From: Planctomycetota bacterium
Lineage (GTDB): Bacteria; Planctomycetota; Planctomycetia; Pirellulales; Lacipirellulaceae
Reading direction: 5' to 3'
DNA: 43,852 nucleotides
Assembly: GCA_039190745.1 (NCBI GenBank)
Contig: JBCCXZ010000029.1
Location: 1 to 43,852, forward strand
This document shows positions 1 to 39,211 of the stretch, piece after piece. The translations under genes were made by a program, and so were the position numbers. The notes beneath the pieces were generated by a model that worked only from the letters and a program-made list of their open reading frames with translations, had not been told where the DNA came from and made no database searches. Every line of letters begins with the position of its first letter. Positions within the stretch are counted from its first letter, which is position 1.

Positions 1-164
1 CCACACGGGCGGCCGGGGCGTGCCTTGTCTCCCGCGGACGACGCGGCGACAAGTCGCTGATCGTCGTCGTCCTCGGCGCCGGCTCGACCCCCGGACGTTA
101 CGCCGACTCGCGCAACCTGTACCGGTGGGCCTGGAATCAGTTGGAGGAGCAAGCCGGGGAATGA
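1..164 (+). CDS. 3' end of a D-alanyl-D-alanine carboxypeptidase (peptidase S11 / PBP5-like), partial, runs off the left edge
   Basis: Not in the ORF track. Frame starting at base 3 reads TRAAGACLVSRGRRGDKSLIVVVLGAGSTPGRYADSRNLYRWAWNQLEEQAGE*, stop TGA at 162-164. This matches the segment after the KTG motif of S11 enzymes (TxxAGxCLV...LIxVVLG...RxxDxxxL). Confidence 0.75.
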   Translation, partial: TRAAGACLVSRGRRGDKSLIVVVLGAGSTPGRYADSRNLYRWAWNQLEEQAGE

Positions 165-318
165 ACCGCAGAGGACGCAGAGAAAGGTCAAGAGAATTGT
201 GGGAGGGCTCTCCGAGCCCGATTACGCTTCTCATTGGAGAGCGTTATCGGCCTCAGAAAGGCCTCCTACAGATCGATCATCTGTTCTCTGTCTCTGCGAT
301 CTCCGCGACCTCTGCGGT
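165..318. repeat. Composite palindromic element A: outer ACCGCAGAGGACGCAGAG-type inverted repeat enclosing a REP-like pair (198-270)
   Basis: Left arm accgcagaggacgcagaga (165-183), right arm tctctgcgatctccgcgacctctgcggt (291-318). Inner pair TGTGGGAGGGCTCTCCGAGCCCGAT (198-222) and reverse-complement TGTAGGAGGCCTTTCTGAGGCCGAT (246-270). Confidence 0.8.
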
Positions 319-373
319 GAAAACACGTAGCTAAACCAAACAGCCAAGCCAGCAAGAAACGAAAAGCGACCGA

Positions 374-2065
374 ATGGAACCCCACCCCTACGGCTGGCTG
401 AGCGTCGCACCGCCACTCGTTGCGATCGTGCTCGCTATCGCCACCCGCCGGGCGGCCCTCTCGCTCATCGCGGGCATCTTCTGTGGCGCCCTGCTCACCA
501 ACCACGGCAACCCATTCGGGGCCGTCTACGACACGCTTGAGGTGCACCTCTGGCCCACGGTCACCGACCCCGGCAAGCTGCGCGTCTTCTCGTTCACGCT
601 GCTGATGGGCGCCACCATCGGCGTCATCTGCCGCTCCGGCGGCATGCTCGGGCTGATCTCCCTCATCTCGCCGCTCGCCCGCACCCGCCGCGGCGGCCAG
701 CTCACCACCTGGGGGCTGGGCATGATTATCTTCTTCGACGACTACGCCAACACGATCCTGCTCGGCGGCACGCTCCGACCCGTGTGCGACCGGCTCCGCA
801 TCTCCCGCGAGAAACTCGCTTACCTCGTCGATTCCACCGCCGCTCCCGTCGCCGCATTGTCGCTCCTCTCGACTTGGGTAGCGGTCGAGATCGACTACAT
901 CCGCTCCGGCATCGAGACGCTCCCCGCCGGGTCTGGCGTCACCGCCATCGACCTCTTCCTGGGGAGCATCCCGTTCCGCTTTTACATCCTGATGTCGCTC
1001 GCATTCATCTTTATCCTGGCTTGGACGGGCCGAGACTTCGGACCGATGCTCGCCGCGGAGAAAGAACGCCTCAAAACCGACCACCCGCCCGAGTCGGTCT
1101 CCAGCGGCACCGCCGCGCTCGACCAAGATCTCGCCAGCGTCCAGCCCGCCCACTGGGCCCACGCCATCGTGCCGATCGTGGTCACGCTCGGCACCGTCAT
1201 GGCGCTGCTCTACACAACGGGCAAACAAGCGATGATGGAAGTGCTCCCGGATGGCGACTTCGGCATCCGCGAAATCCTGGGCGCGGCGGCTTCCAGCTTC
1301 TCACTCCAGTACGGCGCGCTTGCGGGGCTGACCACCGCGGTGCTCATGGGCCGCGTCGCCGGCGTCCTCGACCGGCACGCCGTGCTCGACGCCGCCGCGA
1401 AGGGCGCGCGGGTCGTCCTGCCCGCGATCGCCATCCTGTGGACCGCCTCCGCGCTCTCGCGGCTGACCAGCGACAAGTCGTACGAAGGCGAACCCAGCAC
1501 CACCGCCTACCAGTTCAAAGACCACCGACTCTACACGGGCGTGTTTCTCACCGGCATCCTCACCGACGGCGAAGCACCGACCGAGTCCGGAACGCTATCG
1601 ACGACTGCCAAACTGATGCCGACAGTGGTCTTCCTGCTCGCGGCAGCGCTATCGTTCAGCACCGGCACCAGCTTCGGCACGATGGGCATCCTGCTCCCGA
1701 TGGTGGTCGCGCTCACCTATTCCCTCCTCGCCGCGGGGGGCGTCACCAACACCGCGGAGAACCCCATCCTGCTCGCCTCGGTCGGGGCCGTGCTCGCCGG
1801 CGCCGTCTTCGGCGACCATTGCTCGCCGATCTCCGACACCACGATCCTCTCTTCCCAATCGTGCGCCTGCGACCACATCGCCCATGTTGTCACCCAACTG
1901 CCCTACGCAGCCACGGTGGCGGTCGTCTCCATCCTCTGCGGCACGCTGCCGCTCGGGTGGGGGGTCTCCGTCTGGCTGCTGCTGCCGCTGCAACTCGCCG
2001 CGTTGTGCGTGTGCGTTGCCCTGCTAGGGTCCCGGGCAGAAGACCTCGCCGAGGCCGCCGCATGA
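374..2065 (+). CDS. NhaC-family (Na+/H+ antiporter / amino-acid-type) membrane transporter
   Basis: 563 aa with many TM segments; family motifs IFFDDYAN, SREKLAYLVDSTAAP, SFSTGTSFGTMGI, GAVFGDHCSPISDTTILSS, HVVTQLPYA. Confidence 0.88.
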   Translation: MEPHPYGWLSVAPPLVAIVLAIATRRAALSLIAGIFCGALLTNHGNPFGAVYDTLEVHLWPTVTDPGKLRVFSFTLLMGATIGVICRSGGMLGLISLISPLARTRRGGQLTTWGLGMIIFFDDYANTILLGGTLRPVCDRLRISREKLAYLVDSTAAPVAALSLLSTWVAVEIDYIRSGIETLPAGSGVTAIDLFLGSIPFRFYILMSLAFIFILAWTGRDFGPMLAAEKERLKTDHPPESVSSGTAALDQDLASVQPAHWAHAIVPIVVTLGTVMALLYTTGKQAMMEVLPDGDFGIREILGAAASSFSLQYGALAGLTTAVLMGRVAGVLDRHAVLDAAAKGARVVLPAIAILWTASALSRLTSDKSYEGEPSTTAYQFKDHRLYTGVFLTGILTDGEAPTESGTLSTTAKLMPTVVFLLAAALSFSTGTSFGTMGILLPMVVALTYSLLAAGGVTNTAENPILLASVGAVLAGAVFGDHCSPISDTTILSSQSCACDHIAHVVTQLPYAATVAVVSILCGTLPLGWGVSVWLLLPLQLAALCVCVALLGSRAEDLAEAAA

Positions 2066-3300
2066 AACAAAGCGCATTTGCCGCGTTCGCCGTCCTGGCA
2101 ATCACAACCGCTGCCGCCGCGGCACAGGAACCGGCGCGGGGCACGGTCGTGCTTACCGACGCCGCGCAGAAACTCCACGGCGAGTCGCTCGTCTTCGACG
2201 GCCACAACGACCTCCCCTGGGAGCTCCGCGCCCAGGGCTCGATCGGCTTCGAGCGCCTGGATCTTGCCCAACGGCAGAAGGGGCTCCACACCGATATCCC
2301 GAAGCTCCGCCAGGGGGGCGTCGGGGCCCAGTTCTGGTCGGTCTACGTCCCCGCCTCCACCGACCGCCGCGGCACAGCGCTCGTGACCACGCTCGAGCAG
2401 ATCGAGCTGGTCCACGCCATGGTCGACCGCTACCCGCAAACGTTCGAGCTGGCACTCACCGCCGACGATGTCCGCCGCATCTATGCCGACGGCAAGATCG
2501 CCTCGCTCATCGGCCTGGAAGGCGGGCACTCCATCGAGAACTCGCTCGGCGTGCTCCGCCAGCTGTTCAATCTCGGCTGCCGCTACATGACGCTCACCCA
2601 CTCCGACAGCCTCGACTGGGCCGACTCCGCGACCGACGCCCCCAAGAGCGGCGGGCTTTCCGAGTTCGGCGAAGACGTCGTTCGGGAAATGAACCGCCTC
2701 GGCATGCTGGTCGACCTCTCCCACGTCTCGCCCGCCACGATGAAACACTCCCTACGAGTGACCAAAGCGCCGGTCATCTTCTCACACTCTTCCGCCGTCG
2801 CGGTAGCCGACCACCCGCGCAACGTGCCCGACGACGTGCTCCGGCTGGTCGACCAAAACAACGGCGTGGTGATGGTCAACTTCTACTCGGCGTTTGTCGT
2901 CCCCCAAGCAGCCGCACGCGATCAGAAGTACCTCGACCTCCGCCGCGAGCTTGAGAACCAAGGCCTGCCCGACACGCGCATCCGCGCCGAACTCACCCGC
3001 TGGGCCAAAGCCAACCCCACCGACGAGGGCACGATCCACGACCTGATCGACCACATCGTCCACATTGCCGAGGTCGCTGGCGTCGAGCACGTCGGCCTCG
3101 GATCGGACTACGACGGCGTGAGCATCCTGCCCAAACAACTTGAGAACACCGCCCGCTACCCTTACATCACGCAGGCGTTGCTCGACCGCGGGTTCTCGCC
3201 CGAACAGGTCAAGCTCGTCCTGGGAGAGAACGTGCTCCGCGTGATGGATGACGCCGAGCGGGTTGCTGCCGAACTGCAGGCAGAACAGCCGCTCGAATAA
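2062..3300 (+). CDS. Exported membrane dipeptidase (peptidase M19, amidohydrolase fold)
   Basis: True start ATG 2062 overlaps the upstream TGA (ATGA). Signal peptide MKQSAFAAFAVLAITTAAAAA; motifs DGHND, LEGGH, MTLTH, VDLSH, FSHS, GSDYDG. Confidence 0.92.
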   Translation: MKQSAFAAFAVLAITTAAAAAQEPARGTVVLTDAAQKLHGESLVFDGHNDLPWELRAQGSIGFERLDLAQRQKGLHTDIPKLRQGGVGAQFWSVYVPASTDRRGTALVTTLEQIELVHAMVDRYPQTFELALTADDVRRIYADGKIASLIGLEGGHSIENSLGVLRQLFNLGCRYMTLTHSDSLDWADSATDAPKSGGLSEFGEDVVREMNRLGMLVDLSHVSPATMKHSLRVTKAPVIFSHSSAVAVADHPRNVPDDVLRLVDQNNGVVMVNFYSAFVVPQAAARDQKYLDLRRELENQGLPDTRIRAELTRWAKANPTDEGTIHDLIDHIVHIAEVAGVEHVGLGSDYDGVSILPKQLENTARYPYITQALLDRGFSPEQVKLVLGENVLRVMDDAERVAAELQAEQPLE

Positions 3301-3307
3301 TCTCCGG

Positions 3308-5008
3308 CTAGTCCCTCTGGGCGCGGCCAACCTTCCCCGGAACACGAGGGTCGTGGACGCCGATCAAGCCGCCGGACGGATCCAACCCGATCGCCTGCGT
3401 CACCCCCGCCGAGCGGCCCGAGGAGACCTCGTGCCCGATTCGTGACAGGCCCGTTCCAAGCGAGGCGGGGGCCGCCTCCTCAATCATCACCACGTCGGGT
3501 CGCCATTGGTGGTGGAACCGCGGCGCCGCCACCGCCTCACCAAGCGGCATCCCGTAGTCGAGCGTCCGCACCAGACCCAGCACCACCTGCGTGATGATCT
3601 TCGGCCCGCCCGCGGCCCCCAGGGTCATTACCGGTTCGCCGCCCTTAAGCACAATCGTCGGGCTCATCGATGAGAGCGGCCGCTTGCCCGCCTTCACCGA
3701 GTTGTTCTCCGCTCCCAGCAATCCAAAAGCGTTCGGCACGCCCGGCTGCGCCGAGAAGTCGTCCATCTCGTTGTTCAACACCACGCCCGTTCCCGGCACG
3801 ACGACTTTCGAACCGAAGCTCGTGTTCACCGTCGCGGTGATCGCGACCCAGTTGCCCTCCGTGTCGGCGGCGGCGATGTGCGTCGTGTGCCGTTCGGCGG
3901 TTTGCCGATTGAACAATCGCGTCGCCGCGTCCGGCGGATCCCCGTGCCCATCCACAACCGCCACCGAACCCCGCTCGATCTCGCCCGCCAACTCGTCGGC
4001 GTAGACCTGATCCACCAACCCCGCAGGCACTTCCGCGAAGTCCGCATCCCCGAGCCAGTAAGCACGGTCCGCAAACGCCAGCTTCATCGCCTCCACAATC
4101 AAGTGCGTCGCCCCGACCGGGTCGCGCTGCTTCTCGGTTGCCAGGTCGAACGATTCGAGCATGTTGAGGATCTGAGCAACATGGATGCCCCCCGAACTCG
4201 GCGGCGGGAAACCCACCACATCCCAGCCCCGGTAAGTTGACCGCACCGGTTCTCGAGCCACCGCCCGATACGATGCGAAGTCGTCCGTGGTTATCACGCC
4301 TCCGTTCGCCGCCATCCACGCGCCTACACGCTTGCTAAACGGCCCGTCGTAGAACCACTCGGGCCCGTGCTCGGCGATGGCCCGGTAGGTGCGGGCGAGG
4401 TTCGGTTGCTTGAGCGTCTCGCCCTCCGCGTAAGGGGAGCCGTCCGGCTTCAGCAACGCGGCTGCCGAGCCCTCGAACCGGCGCAGCACCTCAGCAGTCG
4501 AGGCCAGTCGCCTCGCGTAAACCCGGTCCAGCGCAAACCCCTGCTCCGCGATGTCCGCCGCCGGCCGCAGCAGTTCCGGCAGGGTGAGCGCCCCGTGTTC
4601 GTTGATCGCCTTCGAATACGCCGCCAGAGCGCCCGGTACGCCGCTGGCGAGCGGCCCGGTCTGGCTCAACTGCGGAACCGCCTTGCCGTCGCGCAGGAAC
4701 ATGTCTCGCGTAGCCGCGGCCGGGGCCATTTCTCGCCCGTCGATCGCTGCAATCGCCCCGTTGGCCCGACGAATCAGGATAAAGCACCCGCCGCCGATCC
4801 CCGAGTTGGGCGTATCCACCACACCGAGCGTCAGGGCCGTCGCTACCGCGGCGTCAATCGCGTTCCCGCCCCGCCGGTACGCCTCGAGTCCCGCATCGGT
4901 CGCCAGCGGCTGGACCGAGGCCACGACACATTCGCCCGCGGCCGCCGGCAGCCCGAACGAGGCCCATAGCGAAACGCCCACTAGGCCGCAAAAACACAAA
5001 CGTTTCAT
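3308..5008 (-). CDS. ggt: Gamma-glutamyltransferase, exported
   Basis: Start at MKRLCFCG (signal-peptide-like). Motifs GGNAIDAAVA, SGIGGG, IDGREMAP, PPPSSGG, HTTH (autocatalytic Thr), LNNEMDDFS, RPLSSMSP. Confidence 0.93.
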   Translation of the reverse strand: MKRLCFCGLVGVSLWASFGLPAAAGECVVASVQPLATDAGLEAYRRGGNAIDAAVATALTLGVVDTPNSGIGGGCFILIRRANGAIAAIDGREMAPAAATRDMFLRDGKAVPQLSQTGPLASGVPGALAAYSKAINEHGALTLPELLRPAADIAEQGFALDRVYARRLASTAEVLRRFEGSAAALLKPDGSPYAEGETLKQPNLARTYRAIAEHGPEWFYDGPFSKRVGAWMAANGGVITTDDFASYRAVAREPVRSTYRGWDVVGFPPPSSGGIHVAQILNMLESFDLATEKQRDPVGATHLIVEAMKLAFADRAYWLGDADFAEVPAGLVDQVYADELAGEIERGSVAVVDGHGDPPDAATRLFNRQTAERHTTHIAAADTEGNWVAITATVNTSFGSKVVVPGTGVVLNNEMDDFSAQPGVPNAFGLLGAENNSVKAGKRPLSSMSPTIVLKGGEPVMTLGAAGGPKIITQVVLGLVRTLDYGMPLGEAVAAPRFHHQWRPDVVMIEEAAPASLGTGLSRIGHEVSSGRSAGVTQAIGLDPSGGLIGVHDPRVPGKVGRAQRD

Positions 5009-5099
5009 CGAGACCTCATCGCATAGCGCAGACGGCAGAGGAACACACGATCCCCGAGACAACTTCGACGAAGCCACACCCGCCGGCAAGCCCTCAGTG

Positions 5100-5115
5100 T
5101 GTGAACTGTGCCACA
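5100..5115. promoter_or_regulatory. Possible CRP/FNR-family box between the divergent ggt and amidase genes
   Basis: TGTGA-actgtg-CCACA, one mismatch from TGTGA-N6-TCACA. Confidence 0.25.
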
Positions 5116-5283
5116 GCCCTGCGCAGCATCGACGCTAGTATGCGCTTCGAGGATGTTCTCCTGCGGCCGAATCGGGTCCGAGATCGGGCAAACTGTGGGA
5201 AGAATCGCGTGCGGTGCTTACACTAGTGTACTGCGCGAATAGCGGAACGGGTTCGCGCGTCTTGGAACAGGAGCAGAGAGACC

Positions 5284-8200
5284 ATGCGTCGTAAAAAGCG
5301 TAAGCAAGCCGCCCGTAGGAAGGCGCAAACCCGTCCGGACCGCGGGCTGAGGATCGAGCCGCTCGAGCCCCGCATCGCCATGAGTGCGGCCGGCTTGGTG
5401 GACGTCGGCACGCAGCCCGAGGGAGGTCTTTCAGACAAAATCGTCTACACCCACGCCGGCCACGGGTACACCACCGTCAACAATGGCCAGGCGAACGCCT
5501 TCTGGGCCTTCCAGCGCCCGTACCTGTTGGGCATGGTCGAAGACCTCGGCAACTACGACCAACAAACGATCCTGGCCGATTACCTCTTCCGCGCCGGTGC
5601 GACCGTCGTCCCCATGCGGCCGATCGGTTACCAAACCAACGAGATCATCCTCGACAACGACGATGTCGAGGTCACATTCAGCGGCGCCTGGAGCAACAGC
5701 AGCTCGACCATCTACTTCGGCGACGTGGGCGACGTCCCCTACCGGTTCGCCAGCACGAGCCTCACCGAAACCGCCACCGCAACGTACCGTCCAAACATCA
5801 CGGAAGAAGGCCATTACCCCGTCTACGCCTGGACACGCTACGGCTCCGACCGAACCGAACAGCTCTATCGCATCAACCATTCCGGCGGCAGCACCGAGGT
5901 CACCGTCAACCACCGCCGAGTGGGCAACGGCCTGGTCTACCTCGGCACCTACCATTTCGAGAACGGCACCGCCGGCTCGGTCGAGATCAGCAACCGCTCC
6001 GACGAAACCGGCCGCGTTGTGATCGCCGATATGATCCGCTTCGGCAACGGCATGGGCGACATCGACCGTGGCGCGGGCATCTCGGGCCTCCCGCGCGAAG
6101 ACGAGGCCGGACTCTACTGGGTCCAGTGGCACGTCGACCGCTCGCAGGGGGTCCCCACCAGCGAGTACCGCACCAGCAGCTCCGACTCCAGCGCCACCGT
6201 GAGCCTCGCCCCGCGTTACTCGGAATACATGAACCGCTCCACCGACGGCAGCCTTTCCGACCGGGTGCTGGTGAGCTTCCACTCCAACGCCGGCGGCGGC
6301 GGGGCCCGCGGCACGCTCGGCCTGCACAACACCAACCAGGGAGGCAACACGCCCAATCAGTTCTTCCTCGCCGACACGCTCGGCCAAGAAGTCAACGACG
6401 ACCTGGTCGCCCAAAACGGCCAATACGAGCACAACTGGTTCGACCGTGGCAACAACGTCACCTTCCAGACCACCTTCAACTACGGCGAGCTCAACAACCT
6501 CTACATCAACAACGAATTCGACGCGACGATCCTCGAAACCGCCTTCCACGACAACCAGCTAGACGCCGAGCTGATGCGCGACCCCAAGGCCCGCGACGCC
6601 ATCGGCCGCGCCACCTACCAAGGCATCGTGAAGTACTTCAACGGCGTCGACAGCGGGGCCACCAGCCTCACCATGCTCCCGGGCGCAGTCGAAACCATCC
6701 GCGCAGAAACCGCCGGCCCCGACAGCGTGACCCTCACCTGGACGGCCCCGAACGTAAACTCCTACGACGGCAGCGCCCCCACCGGCTACATGGTCTACGG
6801 CTCGACCAACGGCAAGGGCTTCGACGGAGGGACCTTCGTCTCCGGCGGCGGCACGACCACCTACACCGTCACCGGACTCGACCCCGCCGAAGGGGCGTAC
6901 TACTTCAAAGTCGCCGCGGTCAACGCCGGCGGCGAGGGCGTGGCCTCCGAGGTCGCGGCCGCGATCCCCGGCAACGCAAATGCCAGCAACATACTGATCG
7001 TCAACGGCTTCGACCGGAACGATCGCTTCCTCAGCCCCACGGTTAGCTACCCCGGCGGCTCGGCCCAACGCATCCGCCCGCAGAACACCAATTCGTTCGA
7101 CTACGCTGTGCAGGTCGCCTCGTCGATCGAGGCGTACAACGAGCCCCTCGTGGTCGACACCGCCTCGAACGACATGGTGGAAAACGGCTCGGTTGTGCTC
7201 ACCGACTACGACGCCGTGATCTGGATCCTCGGCGAAGAGTCGACCGAAAACGAGACGTTCAGCAACGTCGAGCAAACGCTCGTCTCCGGCTACCTGGCAG
7301 CCGGCGGGCAGCTCCTGGCGACCGGAGCCGAAATCGGCTGGGACCTCGACGCACAGAACGGAGGGACCAGCTTCTACAACAACTCGCTCCGGGCGAACTA
7401 CGTCGCTGACGACGCCAACACGTACAACGTCAATGCCGTGCCGGGCTCGATCTTCGACGGCGTTGCCTCGTTCGCCTTCGACGACGGCAGTGAGTTCTAC
7501 GATGCCCAGTTCGCGGACGTGATCTCCCCCTCCGCCGGGTCGACCGCGGCGTTGACTTACTCCACCGGCGGAACCGCCGCCGTCCAGTATGTCGGCGGAG
7601 CCGGGGAGCGGGTCGTCACCTTCGGGTTCCCCTTCGAGACCATCACCACCGAGTCTGCGCGCAACGCCGTCATGGCTGGCGTGCTGGACTTTTTCGTCAC
7701 CGAGAGCGTTCCGCTCCAACCCTTGCAGCTGGTTCTCGATAACGACGACGGCCCAACCGTCTACTCTGAGACCGGCACATGGTCGAACGGCCCAGACGCC
7801 GGGTTCAACGGCGGGACTTACCGGACGGCGGTCGTGGGAGAATCCTCGGTCGCAACCTGGACTTTTAACGCACCCTACTCCGGCACGGCCGAAGTATTCG
7901 TGCAGTACCGCGCCGAGCCGGACCGCGCCTCTAATGCCCAGTATGTGATCGAGTTCGGATCAGGCATTGGGTTCGCCGCGGCAGACCAGCAGGCCCCGAA
8001 CCTGGAGTGGATGTCCTTGGGCAACTTCGACATTTCGGCGGGCCAGAACTCGGTCTCCCTCGCTGCGCTGCTAAGCTCTGGCGGCACGACAGTTGTCGCC
8101 GATGCCGTCCGAGTCGATCTCTTGCCGGCTCTGAATGCGGACTTCGACGGCGACGCCGACATCGATCTCTTTGACCTCCTCCGCCTCCAGCGGGGTTTCG

Positions 8201-8577
8201 GCGCCGGCACAACCGTTGCCGAAGGCGACGCCGACCGCGACGACGACGTCGACGCCGACGATCTCGAGTACTGGGTCACCCAAGCGGGCGCCGGCTCGGT
8301 GCAGACCGCACCGTCGATCGCGGTGCAGGCCTCCACAACTGCTGCCCTTGTGACCGGACCGCACTGGCTCGCCCAGCCGATCGTCGAGCGGCAGGAGCAA
8401 GCCATACTGACATCGGAATTCGCTGGCGACGCAGCCTTGCCTCAGCTGTGGGATCGGTGGCTGGAGTCAACCGCACCCAGTCAAACAAGCAACGAAGACC
8501 TGTTCGAGGACGATCGGGAGCCACGCGACGAAGACGAAGCCTTCGCGCAGCTCTTCGAAGACGGCGAACTTGCTTAG
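5284..8577 (+). CDS. Secreted multidomain N-acetylmuramoyl-L-alanine amidase (Amidase_3-like with inserted Golvesin/xanthan-lyase CBM-like domain, FN3, second CBM-like domain, dockerin-like repeat)
   Basis: Leader RGLRIEPLEPRIAMSA. Zn-amidase motifs KIVYTHAGHG, MVED, VSFHSNA, ILETAFHDN. FN3 segment SVTLTWTAP...YYFKVAAVNAGGEG. Two LDNDD...W...AD(M/A)(I/V)R modules. C-terminal ADFDGDADIDLFD / GDADRDDDVDADD. Confidence 0.75.
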   Translation: MRRKKRKQAARRKAQTRPDRGLRIEPLEPRIAMSAAGLVDVGTQPEGGLSDKIVYTHAGHGYTTVNNGQANAFWAFQRPYLLGMVEDLGNYDQQTILADYLFRAGATVVPMRPIGYQTNEIILDNDDVEVTFSGAWSNSSSTIYFGDVGDVPYRFASTSLTETATATYRPNITEEGHYPVYAWTRYGSDRTEQLYRINHSGGSTEVTVNHRRVGNGLVYLGTYHFENGTAGSVEISNRSDETGRVVIADMIRFGNGMGDIDRGAGISGLPREDEAGLYWVQWHVDRSQGVPTSEYRTSSSDSSATVSLAPRYSEYMNRSTDGSLSDRVLVSFHSNAGGGGARGTLGLHNTNQGGNTPNQFFLADTLGQEVNDDLVAQNGQYEHNWFDRGNNVTFQTTFNYGELNNLYINNEFDATILETAFHDNQLDAELMRDPKARDAIGRATYQGIVKYFNGVDSGATSLTMLPGAVETIRAETAGPDSVTLTWTAPNVNSYDGSAPTGYMVYGSTNGKGFDGGTFVSGGGTTTYTVTGLDPAEGAYYFKVAAVNAGGEGVASEVAAAIPGNANASNILIVNGFDRNDRFLSPTVSYPGGSAQRIRPQNTNSFDYAVQVASSIEAYNEPLVVDTASNDMVENGSVVLTDYDAVIWILGEESTENETFSNVEQTLVSGYLAAGGQLLATGAEIGWDLDAQNGGTSFYNNSLRANYVADDANTYNVNAVPGSIFDGVASFAFDDGSEFYDAQFADVISPSAGSTAALTYSTGGTAAVQYVGGAGERVVTFGFPFETITTESARNAVMAGVLDFFVTESVPLQPLQLVLDNDDGPTVYSETGTWSNGPDAGFNGGTYRTAVVGESSVATWTFNAPYSGTAEVFVQYRAEPDRASNAQYVIEFGSGIGFAAADQQAPNLEWMSLGNFDISAGQNSVSLAALLSSGGTTVVADAVRVDLLPALNADFDGDADIDLFDLLRLQRGFGAGTTVAEGDADRDDDVDADDLEYWVTQAGAGSVQTAPSIAVQASTTAALVTGPHWLAQPIVERQEQAILTSEFAGDAALPQLWDRWLESTAPSQTSNEDLFEDDREPRDEDEAFAQLFEDGELA

Positions 8578-8768
8578 GCATATTCACTGGTTGGCGCGTG
8601 GGAAATACGATCAACCCTTCGCAATTGCGCGGAAGAATTGCGCTTCCGCGGGGCGTAAGCGGCGGGGAGAATCCACACTTTCCACTATACTAATTGAGAT
8701 TACTATCACCCTCACTGGCGGCGTCCCCTAGCGTCACCCACCGAGAAGCGTCTTCAGGAGTCTATGCC

Positions 8769-9884
8769 TTGAGTCTCACTCTACCTGCGCCTTCCAAGCT
8801 GCGTCGCCCTAGTGGCTTTACGCTCGTCGAACTCCTGGTGGTCATCGCCATCATCGGCATCCTGGTGGCCCTGCTGCTGCCGGCGATCCAGTCCGCCCGC
8901 GAGGCAGCGCGGCGGATCCAATGCCAGAACAACCTGAAGCAAATCGGTCTCGGGTCTCTAAACCACGAGAGCACTTACGGCTTCTACATGACCGGCGGCT
9001 ACAGCTTCGATTGGGTAGCCGACCCGGATCGAGGGTTCGACGAGAAACAACCAGGTGGCTGGGCGTATAGCTTGCTGCCGTTCATCGAACAGCAAGCCCT
9101 CCGCGATCTTGGGACAGGCACTGGCCTTACCTCAACCGAGCGCACCGAGGCCTTGAGTCTCTTACTGACGACGCCTGTAGATGCATACCTCTGCCCATCA
9201 CGAGGCCGCGAACCTGTAAGCCTGGCTCGCTGGGGCAGGCCGATCAACGGACCGGCAGCACTCGAGACCCTCGCGCAGACGACCGGAGTTTTCAAAGTAG
9301 ACTACGCCGGCAACTCTGGCGACTCGCGGTACTTCGATGGCGCCAACTACGTGGCTGGCGGCGGCCGCGGCGGCGTTTACCGAATCGACACTGCAGGGCT
9401 CAGCCAGGACCCAAATCTCTGCGACGACCCTACGAATAGTCTCTACGAGTTTTGCCAGTCGGGCATCTTCTACCCTCAGAGCGAGATGAAGATCCGTGAG
9501 ATCACCGACGGCACCTCCAATACCTACCTTATCGGTGAGAAATTCATGTCTGTCGACGCCTACGAGGGCGCTATCGACAGCAGCGATGCTGGCTTCTCGT
9601 TCGGCACGAACCAGCCTGCCTATTGCGGCTATGAATGGGACAACTACCGCGTCGCGTGGAACCCCACTTTCTATTCGGTAGACGATCAAGAACTATTCCA
9701 GCCGAGGGCTGACCAACCGGGAGACGCTCCCAATCCACCGTTCATGTTCGGCAGCGCTCACCCCGCATCGTGGCACGTAGTGATGTGCGACGGGTCAGTA
9801 CAAGGGCTAGCCTACGACATCGACCCAAACCTGCACCGCAATCTAGCCGTACGTTTCGACGGGCAAGTCGTGTCGCTCGACTAG
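8769..9884 (+). CDS. DUF1559 (prepilin-type N-terminal cleavage/methylation) protein
   Basis: [77 protein letters not shown] start at 8769 with AGGAG 8 nt upstream. Confidence 0.9.
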
Positions 9885-9923
9885 AACTGTTCGAGGTCGC
9901 TGCTCTGCTGCAGGAAGCCCGGG

Positions 9924-10571
9924 TCAGTTCGATTCCAGATTAAGCAAGAGAGGTCGTGTGCTCTGCATCGCTGGGTCGTCCTTTGAAACCTGCTGACCTA
10001 GCATCGTCTCGGCGTTATAGCGGGTTGGAAACTTTTCGCTGCCATTCTCAAGCTTCGACACCTGAATGCGGTAGAAGCCAGTCTGCATCCCTGCAGGGCT
10101 GGTTGGGCTTGGTCGTTGATCTTTGGGAATCTTGATGTTGGCCTGCCCCTGAATGTTGGTGGTGCCCCGCGCGGGCTGGATCGCCCCCTTGAGGTATTCC
10201 ACCGGCTCGAACGTAACCGTCGCGTCCTTCACCGGTTGGCCGTCCAACATCACAGTGCAGCGGCAACCCGTCAGCCCTACTTTCGAGTCGATCCAGCTCT
10301 GGATCCGCGCCTCAATCTCAGCCTGGCTGACCTTTTGGTCGCCGTCGGTATCGAGTGTTGACATAGCGGCCTTGAGTTCCGGGGCCGAATCTAATTCCTC
10401 GCCCGCGATCAGCCCGTCGCCGTCGCTGTCGTAGAGGTCCATCGCCTTCGACGCATCGCGGCTGGGGCTGAAGCCCGGCACGTCGATCCGCCCCGGCCCG
10501 CCGCCGCAACCGACCGCAGCTATCAAACCAACAAACCCGCACGCGGCGGCCAGGTAACGCAGGGTACTCAA
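9924..10571 (-). CDS. Lipoprotein with EF-hand pair and carboxypeptidase-regulatory-like beta-sandwich (DUF1559 partner type)
   Basis: Lipobox AAVG-C; EF-hand-like loops [12 protein letters not shown] and [38 protein letters not shown] pattern. TTG start with GAGG upstream. Confidence 0.75.
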
Positions 10572-10879
10572 GGGTCGTTCCTCTTGTTCGTGGGACAGTC
10601 CGCGGTGAGAAATCGGTCTCTCCGCGGTGCAGCTCTTACTCGCAGTTCAGCACTAACGTAGTGCAAGGCGATGCAGCCCAGCAACTGGCGACCGCACCGG
10701 CGCGGCAGGCGTGTGCGGTCGGCCGCCTCTCTGTTCTGCGCAGGGCCACTCGCCCGGTGCGCACTACGACGTCCCGCTCCAGAAGTTTGCTTGCCGAAGC
10801 AGCCGAGTTCGCACAAGATACTCACCATGACGTTGAGCAGAGGGAGGCGCCACTCACTCAACCGTTCACGAGGCCACGT

Positions 10880-12058
10880 GTGCGCACCTACCAGTCTCCC
10901 TCAAGCTCCGCCCGCCGCGCCGCGGCCTTCACCCTCGTCGAGCTGCTGGTGGTCATCGCCATCATCGGCATCTTGGTGGCTTTGCTGCTGCCCGCGATCC
11001 AGGCCGCCCGCGAAGCGGCACGGCGCATCCAGTGCCAGAACAACCTCAAGCAGATGGGCGTTGCCTCGCTCAACCACCTCTCCACCTACAATTACTACCC
11101 CAGCGGCGGCTGGGCCTACGACTTGGCGCCCGACCCAGAACGGGGCTACGGCAAAACCCAACCCGGCAGTTGGGCCTACAGCCTGCTTTCGTTCATGGAA
11201 TTGCAGAACCTCCGCGATCTCGGCTCCGGAACTGCATTGAACTCCGCCGAGCGAGCAGAGGCGCTCATCTTGCTGCACCAGACACCGGTCTCCGGATTCC
11301 TCTGCCCGACACGCGCCAAAGAAGCCATTACGCTTGCCGTGTGGAACGGTTTGGCGAATGAGACAACCGGCGCCTTGGTATCAGCCGCACGACAAACGGG
11401 GGTCATGAAAGGCGACTACGCGGCCAGCTCCGGTGATTCCGTAGAATTCGACAGCTTCTGGTTCTATACCCCCTCCGGCGGCGGCCGGGCCGGCGGCAGC
11501 GCGTACTCGCAAGTAGATGCTAACGGTATGAATAGGCTTACCAATGTCTGCGACGATCCCACGGATGACCGAGCTACCGAGTCGATCCCCATAGGAGAGG
11601 GCGGCTACTCAGCCTGCCAGTCGGGGATCATTTACATCCAGAGCGAGACCACTACCGCAGATATCCCGGACGGCACGTCCAACACCTACTTAATCGGCGA
11701 GAAGAACATCGCCCCGGACGCTTACGACGGGACCGGAGTCAAGCAAACGTCCGGCTGGTCTCTCGGGACCAACCAGTCGCTCTACGCGGGCTACGACTGG
11801 GACAACCATCGAGTCGCCTGGAATCCAGCAATCTTCGACGAAGCCGCAAGAGAGTTCTTCCAGCCGATGATCGACCGCGATGGGAGTTCAGGCAACCCGA
11901 CGCGGAGGTTTGGAAGTGCGCATGTTGCGGGTTGGAACATGATGTTCGCCGACGGTTCAGTCCACCAACTCTCCTACGAAATCGACCCACTCGTCCACAG
12001 CTATTTGGCTACGCGCTTTGACGAGAACATCGTTACGGTTGAGGACGGCCAGCGCTGA
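10880..12058 (+). CDS. DUF1559 prepilin-type protein, paralog of 8769-9884
   Basis: [48 protein letters not shown] start at 10880 after GAGG; the ORF-track extension to 10661 is probably not coding. Confidence 0.9.
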
Positions 12059-12083
12059 GACCATCTGTGATCGGCCTATAAAG

Positions 12084-12734
12084 TTAGCGGGCCTCCACCT
12101 CGAATTCTGCAGGCAGCGTGCTGCCTGTTTGTGGATCGTCCATGGCAATCTGTAGTCCGAGCACCGTCTCTTCGTTGAATTCAGCGGCGATCGTCTCTCC
12201 GTCAGCAGCTGGCTTGGTAATCCGCACAATGTAAATCCCCGCGCGCATTCCGGGGGGAAAGTCTGTCGTGGGCCGGTCTTCTTTGGGGATCGTTAGCATC
12301 GCCTCGCCTGTCCGAGCGGTCTTGCCGCTCCCGGTTTGGATCACGTCCTCCAAGAACGGGTCAGGCTCCAACGATACTACAGCGCCCGCTAACCTCTTCC
12401 CTCCCATCTTCACCACGCAACGGCAACCCGTCACCCCGATACCCGAATCGATCCAAGCCTTCACCCGGGCCGCGACCTCCGCTTCAGAAACCTTGCCGTC
12501 CCCATCAGTATCGAGCGTCGACATCGTCGCCTTCAGGCCTGGTGCGTTCTCCAACTCCTCCCCGGCCACAAAGCCATCGCCGTCGGTGTCGTACAGTTCC
12601 ATCGCACGGCCTGCGTGGTACCCCGGCCGGAACGCGGGTACGTCGATCGCGCCGGGCCTCCCGCTGCACCCCGCCAAAACGAGGTCAACCAAGAGCACGC
12701 AAACGCAACACGATTCCGATTTCAGCTTCGGCAT
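12084..12734 (-). CDS. Lipoprotein with EF-hand pair, paralog of 9924-10571
   Basis: VLAG-C lipobox; DTDGDGFVAGEE and DTDGDGKVSEAE loops; shared motifs IDVP.F.P, WIDS..G.TGCRC. Start may instead be 12764. Confidence 0.72.
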   Translation of the reverse strand: MPKLKSESCCVCVLLVDLVLAGCSGRPGAIDVPAFRPGYHAGRAMELYDTDGDGFVAGEELENAPGLKATMSTLDTDGDGKVSEAEVAARVKAWIDSGIGVTGCRCVVKMGGKRLAGAVVSLEPDPFLEDVIQTGSGKTARTGEAMLTIPKEDRPTTDFPPGMRAGIYIVRITKPAADGETIAAEFNEETVLGLQIAMDDPQTGSTLPAEFEVEAR

Positions 12735-12979
12735 CTCGCTCTTAATCCTCACGTAAAGACTCATAGGGAACGGGGCTCACCAGGCCTCGAAACGACAGGC
12801 AAGCCGGGGGAATTGGCGATGCCGAATCCGCCCGATTCCTCATCGCTGCGCACCCCCGCCACATCGACGCGCAAGCCGGTCCGACTTTGAGCTGCCGCGG
12901 TTGAATCCGAGTCTGGCCCCCATCATCATAGCGCGTTCGCGGCCCGACCGACGCAGCAGCTTAACCGCAGGGAACGAGA

Positions 12980-13828
12980 ATGGAAGACACCTGGCCGATC
13001 GGCGTGTTCACAAGCTTCGACGCCGGCCTGGGCCTCAGCCTGCCCGTTGCCCGCAGTTTGGGCCTGGAGACCATCCAACTGCACGCCCCCACCAGCGGGG
13101 CCCGTTCGACCGAGCACGTCGAAAAGCTCCAGTCCGACCTTGCAGAAAGCGGCATCCGCGTCACCTGCGTCTTCGCCGGGTTCGACGGCGAGAGCTACGC
13201 CGACATCCCCACGGTGGCCCGCACCATCGGCCTCGTCCCGCCGGAAACCCGCGACCAGCGTTGCGACGAGCTCAAGGCGATCGCCGATTTCGCCAAGGGA
13301 TTGGGCGTCGATGCGGTCGGCCTGCACATCGGCTGCGTGCCGCACGACCCCGCCGACGAAACCTACGCCGCGGTGCTCGCCGCCACGCGCGACGTGTGCG
13401 ACCACTGCCGCTCGCAGGGCCAAGCCGTCCACCTCGAAACCGGGCAGGAGCCAGCCGAAGTGCTGCACCGCTTCCTCACCGATTCCGAGCGCGACAACCT
13501 CTTCGTGAACTTCGACCCCGCGAACATGATCCTCTACGGCTGCGGCGAGCCGCTGCCCGCGCTCCGCGAGGTCGCCCCCTTCGTCCGCAGCGTCCACTGC
13601 AAGGACGCCAAGTGGTCCGATCGGCCCGGCGAAACCTGGGGCCAGGAAACGCCCCTCGGCGGCGGCGACGTCGGCATGCGTGACTTCCTGGCCGTCCTCA
13701 AGGAAATCGGGTACCGCGGCCCGCTCACCATCGAGCGTGAGATCCCCGAAGAGCCCGAACGGCAGAAGGCCGAGATCGGCCAGGCCGTAGAACTGCTACG
13801 CAGCCTCAAGACGGAGCTCTTGCCGTGA
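12980..13828 (+). CDS. Sugar phosphate isomerase/epimerase (xylose-isomerase-like TIM barrel, AP_endonuc_2)
   Basis: Metal-binding pattern HLETGQE, NFDPANMILYG, SVHCKD, GYRGPLTIERE. Confidence 0.85.
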   Translation: MEDTWPIGVFTSFDAGLGLSLPVARSLGLETIQLHAPTSGARSTEHVEKLQSDLAESGIRVTCVFAGFDGESYADIPTVARTIGLVPPETRDQRCDELKAIADFAKGLGVDAVGLHIGCVPHDPADETYAAVLAATRDVCDHCRSQGQAVHLETGQEPAEVLHRFLTDSERDNLFVNFDPANMILYGCGEPLPALREVAPFVRSVHCKDAKWSDRPGETWGQETPLGGGDVGMRDFLAVLKEIGYRGPLTIEREIPEEPERQKAEIGQAVELLRSLKTELLP

Positions 13829-13859
13829 GCCACTGCCAGCCCCGACGGAGGCGTCACGC

Positions 13860-14903
13860 ATGATCCGCGTAGGCATTGCCGGGCTTGGGTTCATGGGCAT
13901 GGTCCATTACCTGAGCTACCAGAAGATCCGCGGCGTGAAGGTCGCCGCCATCTGCGAGAAGAACCGCAAACGGCTCGAAGGAGACTGGCGGGGCATCCAG
14001 GGCAACTTCGGCCCCGCCGGAACGCGGATGGACCTCTCCGGCGTCGCCACGTATGAGAACCTCGACGACATGCTCGCCGACGACTCGCTCGACCTGATCG
14101 ACGTCACGCTGCCGCCTTCGTTGCATGCCGGCGTGGCGGTCGCGGCGCTCAAGCACAGCAAGCACGTCTTCTGCGAAAAGCCGATGGCGCTCGAGCCCCG
14201 CGACTGCCGCAAGATGAACGCCGCGGCCCAGAAAGCCGACCGCCGCCTGCTCATCGGCCACGTCCTGCCGTTCTTCCCCGAGTACGCCTGGGCACTCAAG
14301 GCCGTGCAATCCCGCCGCTACGGTAAGCTCCTCGGCGGAGAGTTCCGCCGCGTGATCTCCGACCCCAGCTGGCTGGCCCACTACTGGAAGCTCAACGTCA
14401 TCGGCGGCCCGATGCTCGACCTCCACGTCCACGACGCCCACTTCATCCGCCTGCTGTTCGGCATGCCCCGCTCGGTGCACACGGCCGGCCGCATGCGTGG
14501 CGACCTCTGCGAGCACTGGCACACCCTGTTCGACTACCCCGACGCCTCCGTAGCGGCCACCAGCGGCACGATCGAACAGCAGGGCCGCTCGTTCGACCAC
14601 GGCTTCGAGCTCCAGCTTGAGAAGGCAACGCTCGCCTTCCGCTTCGCCGTCAGCGGCGGCGACGGTCGCTACCTATGCGAGCCCACCGTGTACGACTCGA
14701 AGGGCAAGACCAAGCCCGCCAAGCTCGCCGGCGGCGACCCCATGGACGCCTTTGCCGCCGAGCTGCGTCATGTCGCGCGTTGCGTGCGCACCGGAGAGGA
14801 CGCGGGCCCGCTCGAGTCGGCCGCGGCCGAGGACGCGATCCTCCTCTGCCAGAAACAAACCCAGAGCCTCACCAAGGGCAAACCGGTCAAGGTTGTGTCA
14901 TAA
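13860..14903 (+). CDS. Gfo/Idh/MocA family NAD(P)-dependent oxidoreductase
   Basis: RVGIAGLGFMG Rossmann start, HVFCEKPMA, GGPMLDLHVHD. Confidence 0.9.
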   Translation: MIRVGIAGLGFMGMVHYLSYQKIRGVKVAAICEKNRKRLEGDWRGIQGNFGPAGTRMDLSGVATYENLDDMLADDSLDLIDVTLPPSLHAGVAVAALKHSKHVFCEKPMALEPRDCRKMNAAAQKADRRLLIGHVLPFFPEYAWALKAVQSRRYGKLLGGEFRRVISDPSWLAHYWKLNVIGGPMLDLHVHDAHFIRLLFGMPRSVHTAGRMRGDLCEHWHTLFDYPDASVAATSGTIEQQGRSFDHGFELQLEKATLAFRFAVSGGDGRYLCEPTVYDSKGKTKPAKLAGGDPMDAFAAELRHVARCVRTGEDAGPLESAAAEDAILLCQKQTQSLTKGKPVKVVS

Positions 14904-14944
14904 TACAGGTTCAAGCACCTCTCCCGATACAAAACAAGCCACCC

Positions 14945-16909
14945 ATGAAGACCCGACCCGAGAACGCCGAACTCGAATTCGCCGACCCCGCCCACGAGCG
15001 TGAGAAGACCCCCTGCCACGTCTTCCCCCACGCCCGCGAGGCGAGCGTCTACGTCGCCAACCGCATTGCCGATCTGATCCGAGCGCGCGCCGCCACGGGC
15101 GACCGTTGCGTGCTCGGGCTCGCGACCGGCAGCACGCCGGTGACTGTCTACAACGAGCTCATCCGCATGCACCGGGAAGAGGGCCTGAGCTTCGCGAACG
15201 TCGTCACGTTCAACCTCGACGAGTACTTCCCGATGCAGCCCGAAGAGCTGCAGAGCTACGTGCGGTTTATGCGGGAGCACCTGTTCGACCACGTCGACAT
15301 CCCCGCCGAGAACGTGCACATCCCCGACGGCACGCTGCCCGCCGAAGAGGTCTTCGAGCACTGCCGCCAGTACGAGTTCGCCATCCGCGACGCCGGCGGC
15401 ATCGACATCCAAGTGCTTGGCATCGGCCGTACCGGGCACATCGGCTTCAACGAGCCCGGCTCCGGACGCGCCAGCCGCACCCGGCTGATCACCCTCGACA
15501 AGGTCACCCGCGGCGACGCCGCGAGCGACTTCTTCGGCGAAGAGCACGTCCCCCGCCGCGCCATCACCATGGGCGTCGGCACCATCCTCGAAGCCAAGCA
15601 GGTCTACCTGCTCGCTTTCGGCGAGGGTAAAGCGCCGGTCGTCGCCAAAGCGGTTGAGGGTGAGATCTCCAGCATCATCGCCGCGAGCTTTCTGCAGGAG
15701 CACCCCGACAGCAAGATTATCCTCGACGAGGCCGCCGCCGAGCAGCTCACCCGCCTCCGCTGCCCGTGGGTGCTCGGCTCGGTAAAGTGGAACGAGTTCA
15801 AAATCCGCAAGGCCGTCATCTGGCTCGCCAAGCGGCTCAAGAAGCCGATCCTCAAGCTCACCGAAGAGGACTACAACGAAGAAGGGCTGCAGGACCTGCT
15901 CGCCAGCCACGGCCCCGCCTACGAGATCAACCTCCGCGTCTTCCGGCAGTTGCAAGGGACCATCGTCGGCTGGCCCGCCGGCAAGCCCGAGGACGCCCGG
16001 CAGCCCGGTGACCGGCCCCAGCGGCACGACGACATCTTCCCCAAGCGCGTGCTCGTCTTCTCGCCCCACCCCGACGACGACGTCATCAGCATGGGCGGCA
16101 CGCTCATCCGGCTCGCCGACCAGGGGCACGAGGTCCACGTCGCCTACCAGACCTCCGGCAACATCGCCGTGTTCGACGACGACGCACTGCGCTTCGCGGA
16201 GTTCTTCGGCGACTTTGCCCGCGCGACCGACATCGCGTCGGGGCCGGCCTCCGACGTGCAACGCCGCATCGAGGAGTCGATCCAGAACAAGCTCCCCGGT
16301 CAGGTCGACGCCCCGGAAATCCAGCACATCAAGGGGCTTATCCGCCGCGGCGAGGCCCGCGCCGCCACCCGCGCCAGCGGCGTGCCCGGAGAGCGGCTCC
16401 ACTTCATGGATATGCCGTTCTACGAGACCGGCCGCGTCCGCAAGAAGCCGCTCGGCGAGGAAGACATCGCCATCACGGTCGACCTGCTCAACAAGGTCCG
16501 CCCGCACCAGATCTACGCCGCGGGCGACCTCTCCGACCCCCACGGCACGCACCGCACCTGCCTCAGCGCCGTGCTGCAGGCCTGCAACCGCGTTGCCGAA
16601 GAAGACTGGTACGAGTTCTGCACCGTCTGGCTCTACCGCGGCGCCTGGCAGGAGTGGGGCCCGCACCAGATCGAGATGGCCGTCCCCCTGAGCCCCCGCG
16701 AGCTGATGCGCAAGCGGGTCGCGATCTTCAAGCACGAGTCGCAGAAAGACCGCGCCCTGTTCCCCGGCTCCGACCCCCGCGAGTTCTGGCAACGGGCCGA
16801 GCAACGCAACCGCGCTACCGCCGAGCTGTACGACGGCCTGGGCCTCGCCGAGTACGAGGGCATCGAAGGCTTCGTCCGCTGGAAGGGCGACCTCGACTAC
16901 GTGCTCTAG
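14945..16909 (+). CDS. nagB: Glucosamine-6-phosphate deaminase with C-terminal PIG-L/LmbE deacetylase-like domain
   Basis: VLGLATGSTP, FNLDEY, GHIGFNEPG, AITMGVGTI; C-terminal FSPHPDDDVISMGG and DPHGTH. ATG at 14945. Confidence 0.92.
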   Translation: MKTRPENAELEFADPAHEREKTPCHVFPHAREASVYVANRIADLIRARAATGDRCVLGLATGSTPVTVYNELIRMHREEGLSFANVVTFNLDEYFPMQPEELQSYVRFMREHLFDHVDIPAENVHIPDGTLPAEEVFEHCRQYEFAIRDAGGIDIQVLGIGRTGHIGFNEPGSGRASRTRLITLDKVTRGDAASDFFGEEHVPRRAITMGVGTILEAKQVYLLAFGEGKAPVVAKAVEGEISSIIAASFLQEHPDSKIILDEAAAEQLTRLRCPWVLGSVKWNEFKIRKAVIWLAKRLKKPILKLTEEDYNEEGLQDLLASHGPAYEINLRVFRQLQGTIVGWPAGKPEDARQPGDRPQRHDDIFPKRVLVFSPHPDDDVISMGGTLIRLADQGHEVHVAYQTSGNIAVFDDDALRFAEFFGDFARATDIASGPASDVQRRIEESIQNKLPGQVDAPEIQHIKGLIRRGEARAATRASGVPGERLHFMDMPFYETGRVRKKPLGEEDIAITVDLLNKVRPHQIYAAGDLSDPHGTHRTCLSAVLQACNRVAEEDWYEFCTVWLYRGAWQEWGPHQIEMAVPLSPRELMRKRVAIFKHESQKDRALFPGSDPREFWQRAEQRNRATAELYDGLGLAEYEGIEGFVRWKGDLDYVL

Positions 16910-19339: not shown

Positions 19340-19374
19340 TCAGTACGCTTGCCGAAGCCCGGCCGCACTATTCT

Positions 19375-36696: not shown

Positions 36697-36698
36697 GC

Positions 36699-37796: not shown

Positions 37797-37867
37797 TTCG
37801 TTGCGCCATCCAAGTGGAACAGGAGAAAACGCAGATGATCACCACCCCCCGTAGAGAGGGCATCACA

Positions 37868-39176: not shown

Positions 39177-39211
39177 GATCACATGCCAGGATTCGTGAGG
39201 CGCCGAAACGG

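Follow-up and report, generated by a model that had tools for sequence, protein, structure and literature searches.

The window analysed here is the complete contig JBCCXZ010000029.1 (C29; 43,852 nt) of a Planctomycetota bacterium of the family Lacipirellulaceae (GCA_039190745.1, here G000; 3.9 Mb, 95% complete), and it contains the downstream end of a conserved, apparently co-regulated peptidoglycan-catabolism locus of approximately 37 kb (41 kb including the nagB operon). Judging from its gene content, this locus probably allows the host to digest and eat the peptidoglycan of other bacteria, foreign cell walls being the likely substrate. Digestion of foreign walls had been suggested in an earlier note on this stretch of DNA, and it is supported by the linkage of the genes across relatives, by a motif shared among their upstream regions and by the finding of no wall-building genes in G000. 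The presence of MurQ and NagB, together with the lack of Mpl among the Mur-ligase matches of G000, points in the catabolic direction. The window stretch was also present in one marine metagenome run (X1).

The genes named in the earlier note within the first 17 kb were all recovered by Pfam and NCBIfam scans, with refined coordinates. The features of the window (start..end, strand) are as follows:

3..164 (+): C-terminal 53 amino acids of an S11 D,D-carboxypeptidase (DacD E 1.3e-5; Pfam S11 only E 0.009)
374..2065 (+): NhaC-family transporter (PF03553)
2062..3300 (+): M19 dipeptidase with N-terminal leader (PF01244, E 3.6e-110)
3308..5008 (-): gamma-glutamyltransferase (GGT) with N-terminal leader (TIGR00066 above cut-off)
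5116..5152 (+): operator-like TGCGC-N16-TGCGC site in the gap from which the GGT and amidase genes diverge (14.7 bits)
5284..8577 (+): predicted secreted-type N-acetylmuramoyl-L-alanine amidase (Amidase_3 split by Golvesin_C, then Fn3, a second Golvesin_C and a dockerin-like tail)
8614..8650 (+): operator-like site before DUF1559-1 (23.2 bits, best in genome)
~8769..9884 (+): DUF1559 prepilin-type protein 1, start uncertain (PF07596 and PF07963; pilin motif at 8814)
9924..10571 (-): EF-hand lipoprotein 1, tail to tail with DUF1559-1 (Pfam scan)
~10880..12058 (+): DUF1559 protein 2, start uncertain (pilin motif at 10925; tree support 99 in the Shimodaira–Hasegawa-like approximate likelihood ratio test, SH-aLRT)
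12084..12764 (-): EF-hand lipoprotein 2 (Pfam scan)
12843..12879 (+): weak operator-like site in the gap separating lipoprotein 2 from the AP-endonuclease operon (10.8 bits)
12980..13828 (+): accessory TIM-barrel protein of the AP_endonuc_2 family (present in 2 of the 20 regions fetched)
13860..14903 (+): Gfo/Idh/MocA oxidoreductase, accessory (single copy in 36 of 41 genomes)
14945..16909 (+): NagB glucosamine-6-phosphate deaminase fused to a PIG-L deacetylase domain (PRK02122 above cut-off)
35273..40559 (-): second block of two PEP-CTERM-type proteins, two DUF1559 genes and a small lipoprotein (operator-like sites at 36149, 39076 and 40523)

Base 1 of the window is the contig start, and its first 21–77 bases occur nowhere else in the assembly. 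A genome of the same genus (G001) is collinear with the window and gives the contig order C43-C92-C29, from which we infer the C92–C29 join. The S11 tail represents the end of a fusion of beta-lactamase-like, PG_binding_1 and S11 domains whose main part lies on C92; the intact gene in G001 spans the contig gap, and the domains were read from the G020 orthologue. Furthermore, C92 carries genes for a DgcA-like epimerase, a DUF1611 DgcN-like protein, two GHL10 hydrolases, a GH3 NagZ and an AmpG-like permease. C43 adds a PEP-CTERM gene, another DUF1559 pair, a XylR-type AraC regulator gene beside anmK, a BadF-type kinase gene between anmK and murQ, a sodium symporter (SSF) and a fusion of a beta-lactamase-fold domain with NamZ (NamZ_N/NamZ_C). 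Reading upstream, as the earlier note had advised, thus located epimerase, anmK, murQ and GH3 genes on C92 and C43; its statements that ampG and murQ are out of view and that no glycan-backbone hydrolase is visible hold for the window, but ampG-like and murQ genes as well as two GHL10, NagZ and NamZ genes are found on the neighbouring contigs, and the DUF1559 pairs, which it had placed at the centre, sit at one end of the full locus. AnmK and MurQ exceed their NCBIfam cut-offs, whereas NagZ, the AmpG-like permease, LdcA and the DgcA-like and DgcN-like proteins fall below them. The adjacent DgcN-like and DgcA-like genes have DgcN and DgcA as best NCBIfam matches (scores 273/480 and 227/400, respectively). 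The solved structure nearest to a GHL10 protein is that of Cwp19 (E 1.6e-78), a peptidoglycan-cutting enzyme.

Genes for an M14 peptidase, SpmA/B-like proteins and an S66 peptidase are on C8 in G000; among the 20 relatives with fetched regions, they fall inside the cluster in 8, 6 and 10, respectively. On C8 (L077:2014-6169), they form an operon of the M14 peptidase, SpmA/SpmB-like Gate proteins, which may be a peptide or D-amino-acid transporter, and the S66 LD-carboxypeptidase. Some relatives' clusters additionally carry SpoIID-dockerin, GH25 and Amidase_2 genes; Amidase_2 and MpaA-like genes occur elsewhere in G000. The first 112 bases of C92 (L075:1-112) have no match to G001, lack coverage in run X1 and are likely an assembly artefact.

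The Amidase_3 identity of the large secreted-type protein stood with regard to its catalytic residues and fold, but its Pfam match of 26.7 bits lies just below the gathering score of 27, owing to an inserted Golvesin_C domain that interrupts Amidase_3. The zinc ligands His/Glu/His and the catalytic Glu (H60, E86, H333 and E418, numbered H16, E42, H289 and E374 in the alignment) were invariant in 61 homologues. The alignment-based model reached a predicted local distance difference test (pLDDT) value of 93, and Foldseek with this model retrieved Ami1, CwlD, LytH and AmiA (E 1e-6 to 1e-4). A profile search of structures found CwlV (E 6.5e-7); phmmer of the amidase region against the PDB gave nothing useful. 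Taken together, the protein is a predicted Amidase_3-fold amidase that would cleave between N-acetylmuramic acid (MurNAc) and L-Ala. In model and profile comparisons, the Golvesin_C insert resembles the C-terminal module of xanthan lyase and CBM6/CBM35 folds. The nearest titled record is from a Lacipirellulaceae bacterium (86% identity). Tandem copies of the amidase gene (two to three) were seen in the relatives' loci L145, L147, L151, L153, L157, L159 and L169, a few of them altering a non-ligand residue of the first motif.

The binuclear metal-site residues of the M19 dipeptidase were intact in every aligned row (16 sequences); its nearest PDB entry is 3id7 (E 2.6e-103), presumably an L-Xaa-D-Xaa dipeptidase. 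The nucleophile Thr and the binding motifs of GGT were invariant in 15 of 15 aligned orthologues, and the protein is nearest to the standard enzyme 2e0w and distant from CapD. That both enzymes are exported, as the earlier note had it, is consistent with their N-terminal hydrophobic leaders, as judged by eye.

The conservation of the locus was evaluated in 40 relatives (41 genomes with G000), presence being counted by tblastn and distances being measured genome-wide from the amidase gene. The full-length amidase was found in 19 of the 40 relatives, comprising 18 of 24 members of the family and one genome from another family. Within 50 kb of it, GGT was encoded in 15 (13 of them within 10 kb), M19 in 15 and MurQ in 16 of the 19 genomes, the outcome of the synteny analysis that had been proposed as a check; clustering exceeds chance. 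Full-length amidase, MurQ and the DUF1559 subfamily (E 1e-70) occurred in the same 18 of 24 family genomes, with an extra weak DUF1559 match in G025. Gene order is shuffled between genera, and the cluster is therefore not a case of passive synteny. In many relatives, M19 follows the S11 fusion and the DgcA/DgcN-like genes in one operon. Among 36 further loci from the species collection, GGT was located within 10 kb in 15, DUF1559 in 14 and MurQ in 9; several loci titled Phycisphaerae or Sumerlaeota contained few or no query genes. Of the 20 regions fetched, only that of G001 has selD, selB, selA, zwf and ksgA near the amidase.

The upstream regions of the cluster genes share an operator-like motif. 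TGCG-N17-TGCG preceded relatives' cluster genes in 69 of 184 regions (15 genomes), compared to 79 of 2117 background regions in G000. A matrix built from 52 sites, with G000 and G001 excluded, represents TGCGC-N16-TGCGC with a 21-bp period. In G000, sites above 15 bits were found in 4 of 10 cluster intergenic regions versus 15 of 1958 genome-wide (P 5e-7); besides the sites of the window, further sites lie in the regulator-anmK gap, in the murQ-symporter gap and before the GHL10 operon. Held-out amidase loci contained 48 sites in 589 kb (22 of 34 loci), and control loci, which are mostly coding, a point that weakens the comparison, contained 0 in 222 kb. G001 has a site above 12 bits at the place matching the weak site at 12843. 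The motif apparently links the DUF1559 gene with murQ, anmK and the GHL10 operon as a putative regulon. Tandem spacing is typical of the AraC family, and considering its position beside anmK, the XylR-type AraC regulator probably binds the 21-bp-period repeat. The second block (35273..40559) is likely part of the same regulon: its motif sites recur at matching places in G001, and its DUF1559 proteins group with cluster copies of seven relatives (SH-aLRT 97).

Elsewhere in G000, a 20-bit site was observed upstream of a gene on C42 (L129:10507-12878) encoding a GH25 lysozyme with a PATR repeat and a PEP-CTERM-like tail, a DUF1559 gene being located 2 kb before. On C20 (L177:2174-3630), a 17.8-bit site precedes a gene for an L-lysine 6-transaminase (above cut-off), which may burn lysine or diaminopimelate (DAP) from stem peptides.

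With respect to the host's own wall, FtsW/RodA, transglycosylase, MraY, transpeptidase and MreB were without any match in G000, and MurA (AroA only), MurJ and Ddl had no match reaching the cut-off; Mur-ligase matches were two only, MurE-like and FolC-like. In the positive control G026, Mur ligases, MraY, transpeptidase, FtsW/RodA, MurJ, Ddl and MreB were all found. The single-contig genomes G018 and G023 displayed the same absence pattern as G000, bar one PF00953 match each (MraY versus WecA untyped). Canonical self-made peptidoglycan appears not to be encoded in G000, and with matches to MurA, MraY, MurJ, Ddl, FtsW/RodA, transglycosylase and transpeptidase lacking, foreign walls become the more likely substrate. 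Moreover, MurQ was matched in 32 of 47 genomes without an FtsW/RodA match versus 0 of 14 with one (61 genomes, weak matches included), a contrast that lies mostly between one family and the rest, is therefore not independent and carries less weight. In P. limnophila, the mur and dcw genes are dispensable (Rivas-Marin et al., PMC10632474), and the presence of a wall in Planctomycetia is still debated (PMC10632474, PMC12673574).

A number of further observations weigh against a locus dedicated to foreign walls. G000 is only 95% complete, and it keeps murB, a murE-like and a weak murG-like gene (C8:40240-43103, 55738-56556) as relics of a pathway otherwise not found. Jeske et al. (PMC4432640) reported polymeric MurNAc/N-acetylglucosamine (GlcNAc) and DAP for Rhodopirellula baltica, another member of the Pirellulales, and stated that essential synthesis genes are present in all species analysed; combined with the retained genes, these data leave room for an own wall made by unrecognised enzymes. 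Regarding linkage, NhaC lies within 50 kb of the amidase in only 4 of 19 genomes, and nagB and the Gfo gene are near it in only 5 and 2 of 19, respectively. By these values, NhaC and the AP-endonuclease/Gfo/nagB operon, which the earlier note had counted as locus members, were rejected as core parts and are accessory; the operon is order-wide (Gfo in 36 of 41 genomes) and cluster-linked in some lineages only, and the NhaC-family transporter likely serves amino-acid or peptide uptake. GGT is 700 kb from the amidase in G019 and M19 2.9 Mb away in G023, most other linkage misses being due to fragmented assemblies. In addition, GGT orthologues (at least 57% identity) occur in five and M19 in seven amidase-less genomes, the C92–C29 join rests on G001, and no X1 contig bridges the gap. 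Several motif hits are without a clear wall link, and the total of 22 hits in G000 is inside the range of 4–28 obtained with column-shuffled matrices; the signal is therefore the location of the sites, not their number.

Mechanistically, the gene set would fit the following route. GHL10 hydrolases, a GH25 lysozyme encoded elsewhere in the putative regulon and the large amidase, secreted or at the surface, would cut sacculi into glycan pieces and stem peptides, and the S11 fusion together with the S66 and M14 peptidases would trim D-Ala and cross-links. GGT requires a free glutamyl amino group, and M19 requires a free carboxylate. M19 could take L-Ala off L-Ala-gamma-D-Glu-meso-DAP (mDAP), whose D-Glu alpha-carboxylate is free, and GGT would next split gamma-D-Glu from mDAP or Lys, an order opposite to that of glutathione breakdown. 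The DgcN/DgcA-like pair might convert D-Glu to L-Glu via N-acetylation, or alternatively Ala-Glu might be epimerised. MurNAc and GlcNAc would be set free by NamZ and NagZ, and fragments would enter through the AmpG-like permease and the sodium symporter. AnmK, the BadF-type kinase, MurQ and NagB would burn the sugar, and the XylR-type regulator would bind the 21-bp-period repeat. NagA was not found in G000 and G007, with matches below cut-off in G001, G018 and G023; the PIG-L domain fused to NagB may therefore supply the deacetylase step in G000. In the least certain step, the DUF1559 pseudopilin and the lipoprotein would act at the envelope.

A role of this pair in capturing or taking up wall fragments is conceivable, with the odds somewhat against it. 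G000 encodes 38 DUF1559-like genes. In a tree containing all 38 paralogues and, for relatives, the copies of the fetched regions (quick IQ-TREE search without bootstrap, rows below 200 amino acids dropped), DUF1559-1 and -2 represent a genus-level duplication (SH-aLRT 99), within a clade (SH-aLRT 93) that holds the cluster copies of nine other genera and one G000 paralogue from C4. A genome-wide search, scoring at most 50 candidates per genome, removes the bias of the region-only tree: in 15 of 19 genomes, the best match of the window DUF1559 was no more than 10 kb from the amidase, and in the other four it was on a different contig. The site at 8614 ranks top among the upstream regions of the 38 DUF1559 genes. 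Each lipoprotein gene lies on the strand opposite its DUF1559 gene; its best match was in the cluster in 10 genomes, tail to tail with DUF1559 where both were called, and its orthologue was missing from 10 of 20 fetched regions. An atlas search on the lipoprotein returned 'EF hand family protein' as its sole label. Structure prediction lends weak support to a DUF1559-lipoprotein complex (score 0.39 versus 0.13 for the best control; at least 84% of contacts shared between runs; pLDDT of the partners 85 or more). Of 157 solved pairs, 116 reach the mark, as do 2 of 215 mismatches, both of which fall in this low range. No TonB-dependent receptor (PF00593) was found in G000, G001 and G023, and G007 and G018 have one or two; no SusC/SusD was found among the cluster genes scanned. 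The pair might act as a SusCD-like receptor. On C51 of G000 (L174:2489-10565), motif sites were observed before a DUF1559 gene, a PEP-CTERM gene and an NMT1-type ABC operon, divergent from an ADP-ribosylglycohydrolase gene, and the C51 DUF1559 is sister to the cluster clade.

The chance is nearly even that foreign walls are eaten while DUF1559 and the lipoprotein serve as an adhesin under common regulation, help as a pseudopilin to secrete the large hydrolases or are mere passengers; this explanation overlaps with the digestion of foreign walls as proposed here and differs in the DUF1559 step only. It agrees with the prepilin leader, as in type II secretion pseudopilins, with the 38 paralogues, with the lack of an identified binding site, and with the opposite strands and the patchy occurrence of the lipoprotein. 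A passenger would not be expected to stay near the amidase as one and the same subfamily in 15 of 19 genomes, nor to be preceded in G000 by the highest-scoring motif site, and the lack of a TonB receptor in G000, G001 and G023 also counts against this explanation; a role in secretion or adhesion is compatible with these data. GGT followed by a dipeptidase is also the textbook glutathione route, so that GGT and M19 might be a plain salvage pair for glutathione and gamma-glutamyl peptides without action on stem peptides. This appears unlikely: the kinship of GGT to 2e0w rather than CapD and the occurrence of both enzymes in cluster-less genomes would fit, but in 13 of 19 genomes no more than 10 kb separate GGT from the amidase, in several orientations, M19 shares an operon with the S11 fusion and DgcA/DgcN-like genes in many relatives, and glutathione synthetase was above cut-off in none of 41 genomes and without any match in G000, which leaves only outside glutathione as substrate.

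Self-recycling, in which the cluster would turn over the host's own peptidoglycan from a divergent, profile-missed pathway like the murQ-amiE-nagZ-namZ system of B. subtilis, is improbable, even though MurNAc, GlcNAc and DAP were reported in R. baltica (PMC4432640), murB, murE-like and murG-like genes are retained, and AmpG, AnmK, NagZ, LdcA and S11 are classically associated with self-recycling. G000 yielded no polymerase, transpeptidase, MraY, MurJ, MurA or Ddl, six family genomes equally without FtsW/RodA have no cluster, the order members that keep FtsW/RodA are without a MurQ match, and the dockerin, PATR and PEP-CTERM parts of the hydrolases suggest extracellular action. The secreted lysozyme-type and amidase enzymes of a host seemingly without an own wall to protect could also belong to a weapon or predation kit that lyses live neighbours instead of scavenging dead walls; delivery systems or immunity genes were not seen in the fetched regions, the cluster consists mostly of import and catabolism genes, and this explanation is quite improbable, the least likely of those considered.

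In E. coli, peptidoglycan recycling proceeds through AmpG-NagZ-AmpD-LdcA-AnmK-MurQ, with peptide breakdown by Mpa/YcjG. The planctomycete set shares AmpG-like, NagZ, LdcA, AnmK, MurQ and epimerase-family genes and differs in that no Mpl was found, GGT and M19 bear leaders, and the genes form one large, putatively regulated cluster. SusC/SusD loci of Bacteroidota combine a regulator, surface hydrolases, inner-membrane transporters and catabolism. Regulator, hydrolases, transporters and catabolism are likewise clustered and apparently co-regulated here, in line with the organisation like a polysaccharide utilisation locus suggested in the earlier note; the conserved envelope pair is a pseudopilin-like DUF1559 protein and an EF-hand lipoprotein instead of SusC/SusD. 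The B. subtilis murQ-murR-murP-amiE-nagZ-namZ operon is described as performing sequential digestion to sugars and peptides (PMC8054146). MurQ, GH3 NagZ, NamZ and a beta-lactamase-fold (AmiE-like) domain are in common with it; in the planctomycete, however, the AmiE-like domain is fused to NamZ, an SSS symporter, an AmpG-like permease and kinases replace the phosphotransferase system, an AraC/XylR-type regulator replaces MurR, endo-hydrolases and peptide catabolism are in the cluster, and wall synthesis is not recognisable. T. forsythia scavenges MurNAc for its own wall by means of AmpG, NamZ1/2 and MurT-MurK-MurQ (PMC10465942), which resembles the present locus in the outside origin of the wall fragments and in AmpG, NamZ and a BadF-type kinase beside MurQ. 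Since wall-building genes were not found in G000, the fragments would, unlike in T. forsythia, serve as food; that system is moreover without counterparts of the DUF1559 pairs, GGT, M19 and the Golvesin_C-split amidase. The adjacent DUF1611 and enolase-superfamily racemase genes are like the DgcN-DgcA D-glutamate pathway (PMC10845958), but both scores are under the cut-offs, and the racemase-family protein may instead be an L-Ala-D/L-Glu epimerase.

No description of such a planctomycete cluster was found in the full-text literature, subscription papers and supplements being outside this scope and prior mention being possible; the available portions of PMC13315336, PMC7717034, PMC12078418, PMC10864421, PMC12673574 and PMC11685898 contain none. 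The idea that planctomycete loci are defined by DUF1559 in the fucoidan paper PMC11685898 had to be dropped, the term being absent from its available text. New in this analysis are a DUF1559 subfamily dedicated to the locus, the motif of the putative regulon and the contrast to the genes for wall synthesis. DUF1559 proteins form the largest paralogue group in Planctopirus limnophila and have no known function (PMC10632474); one subfamily, connected with a single defined substrate through its linkage, its place in the tree and the operator motif, would provide a first testable substrate. The players in planctomycete macromolecule uptake are described as unknown (PMC12673574), and the locus names candidates for them. 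A wall-eating kit in genomes without wall-building genes would represent an alternative source of wall markers, and the locus points to Lacipirellulaceae as recyclers of bacterial necromass. Confirmation of the M19/GGT route for gamma-D-Glu stem peptides and of the Golvesin_C-split amidase would add new enzymology. It seems doubtful that this wall-synthesis-losing family consists of specialist wall eaters in which DUF1559 and lipoprotein replace SusCD and an M19-then-GGT route operates; if true, the dozens of DUF1559 paralogues would amount to a code for the uptake of specific substrates, and the wall sugars detected in some Pirellulales could stem from food instead of a wall of their own.

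Further features of the window lie between the locus and the second block. The Rfam scan of the window detected only tRNA-Sec and one other tRNA, both outside the locus. A selenocysteine block (17114-22934) comprises an oxidoreductase-SelD fusion, selB, selA and tRNA-Sec, and just past tRNA-Sec the G+C content falls to 0.52 (23001-24000) around an open reading frame with HEAT repeats (23063-23830). A secreted-type M10/M12-like metallopeptidase is encoded at 31272-33866 beside a transglutaminase-like gene. Adjoining the second DUF1559 block, a DUF819 membrane protein (33964-35172), seen among the fetched regions only in G001, may import stem-peptide pieces, the family being found beside dipeptide epimerase genes.

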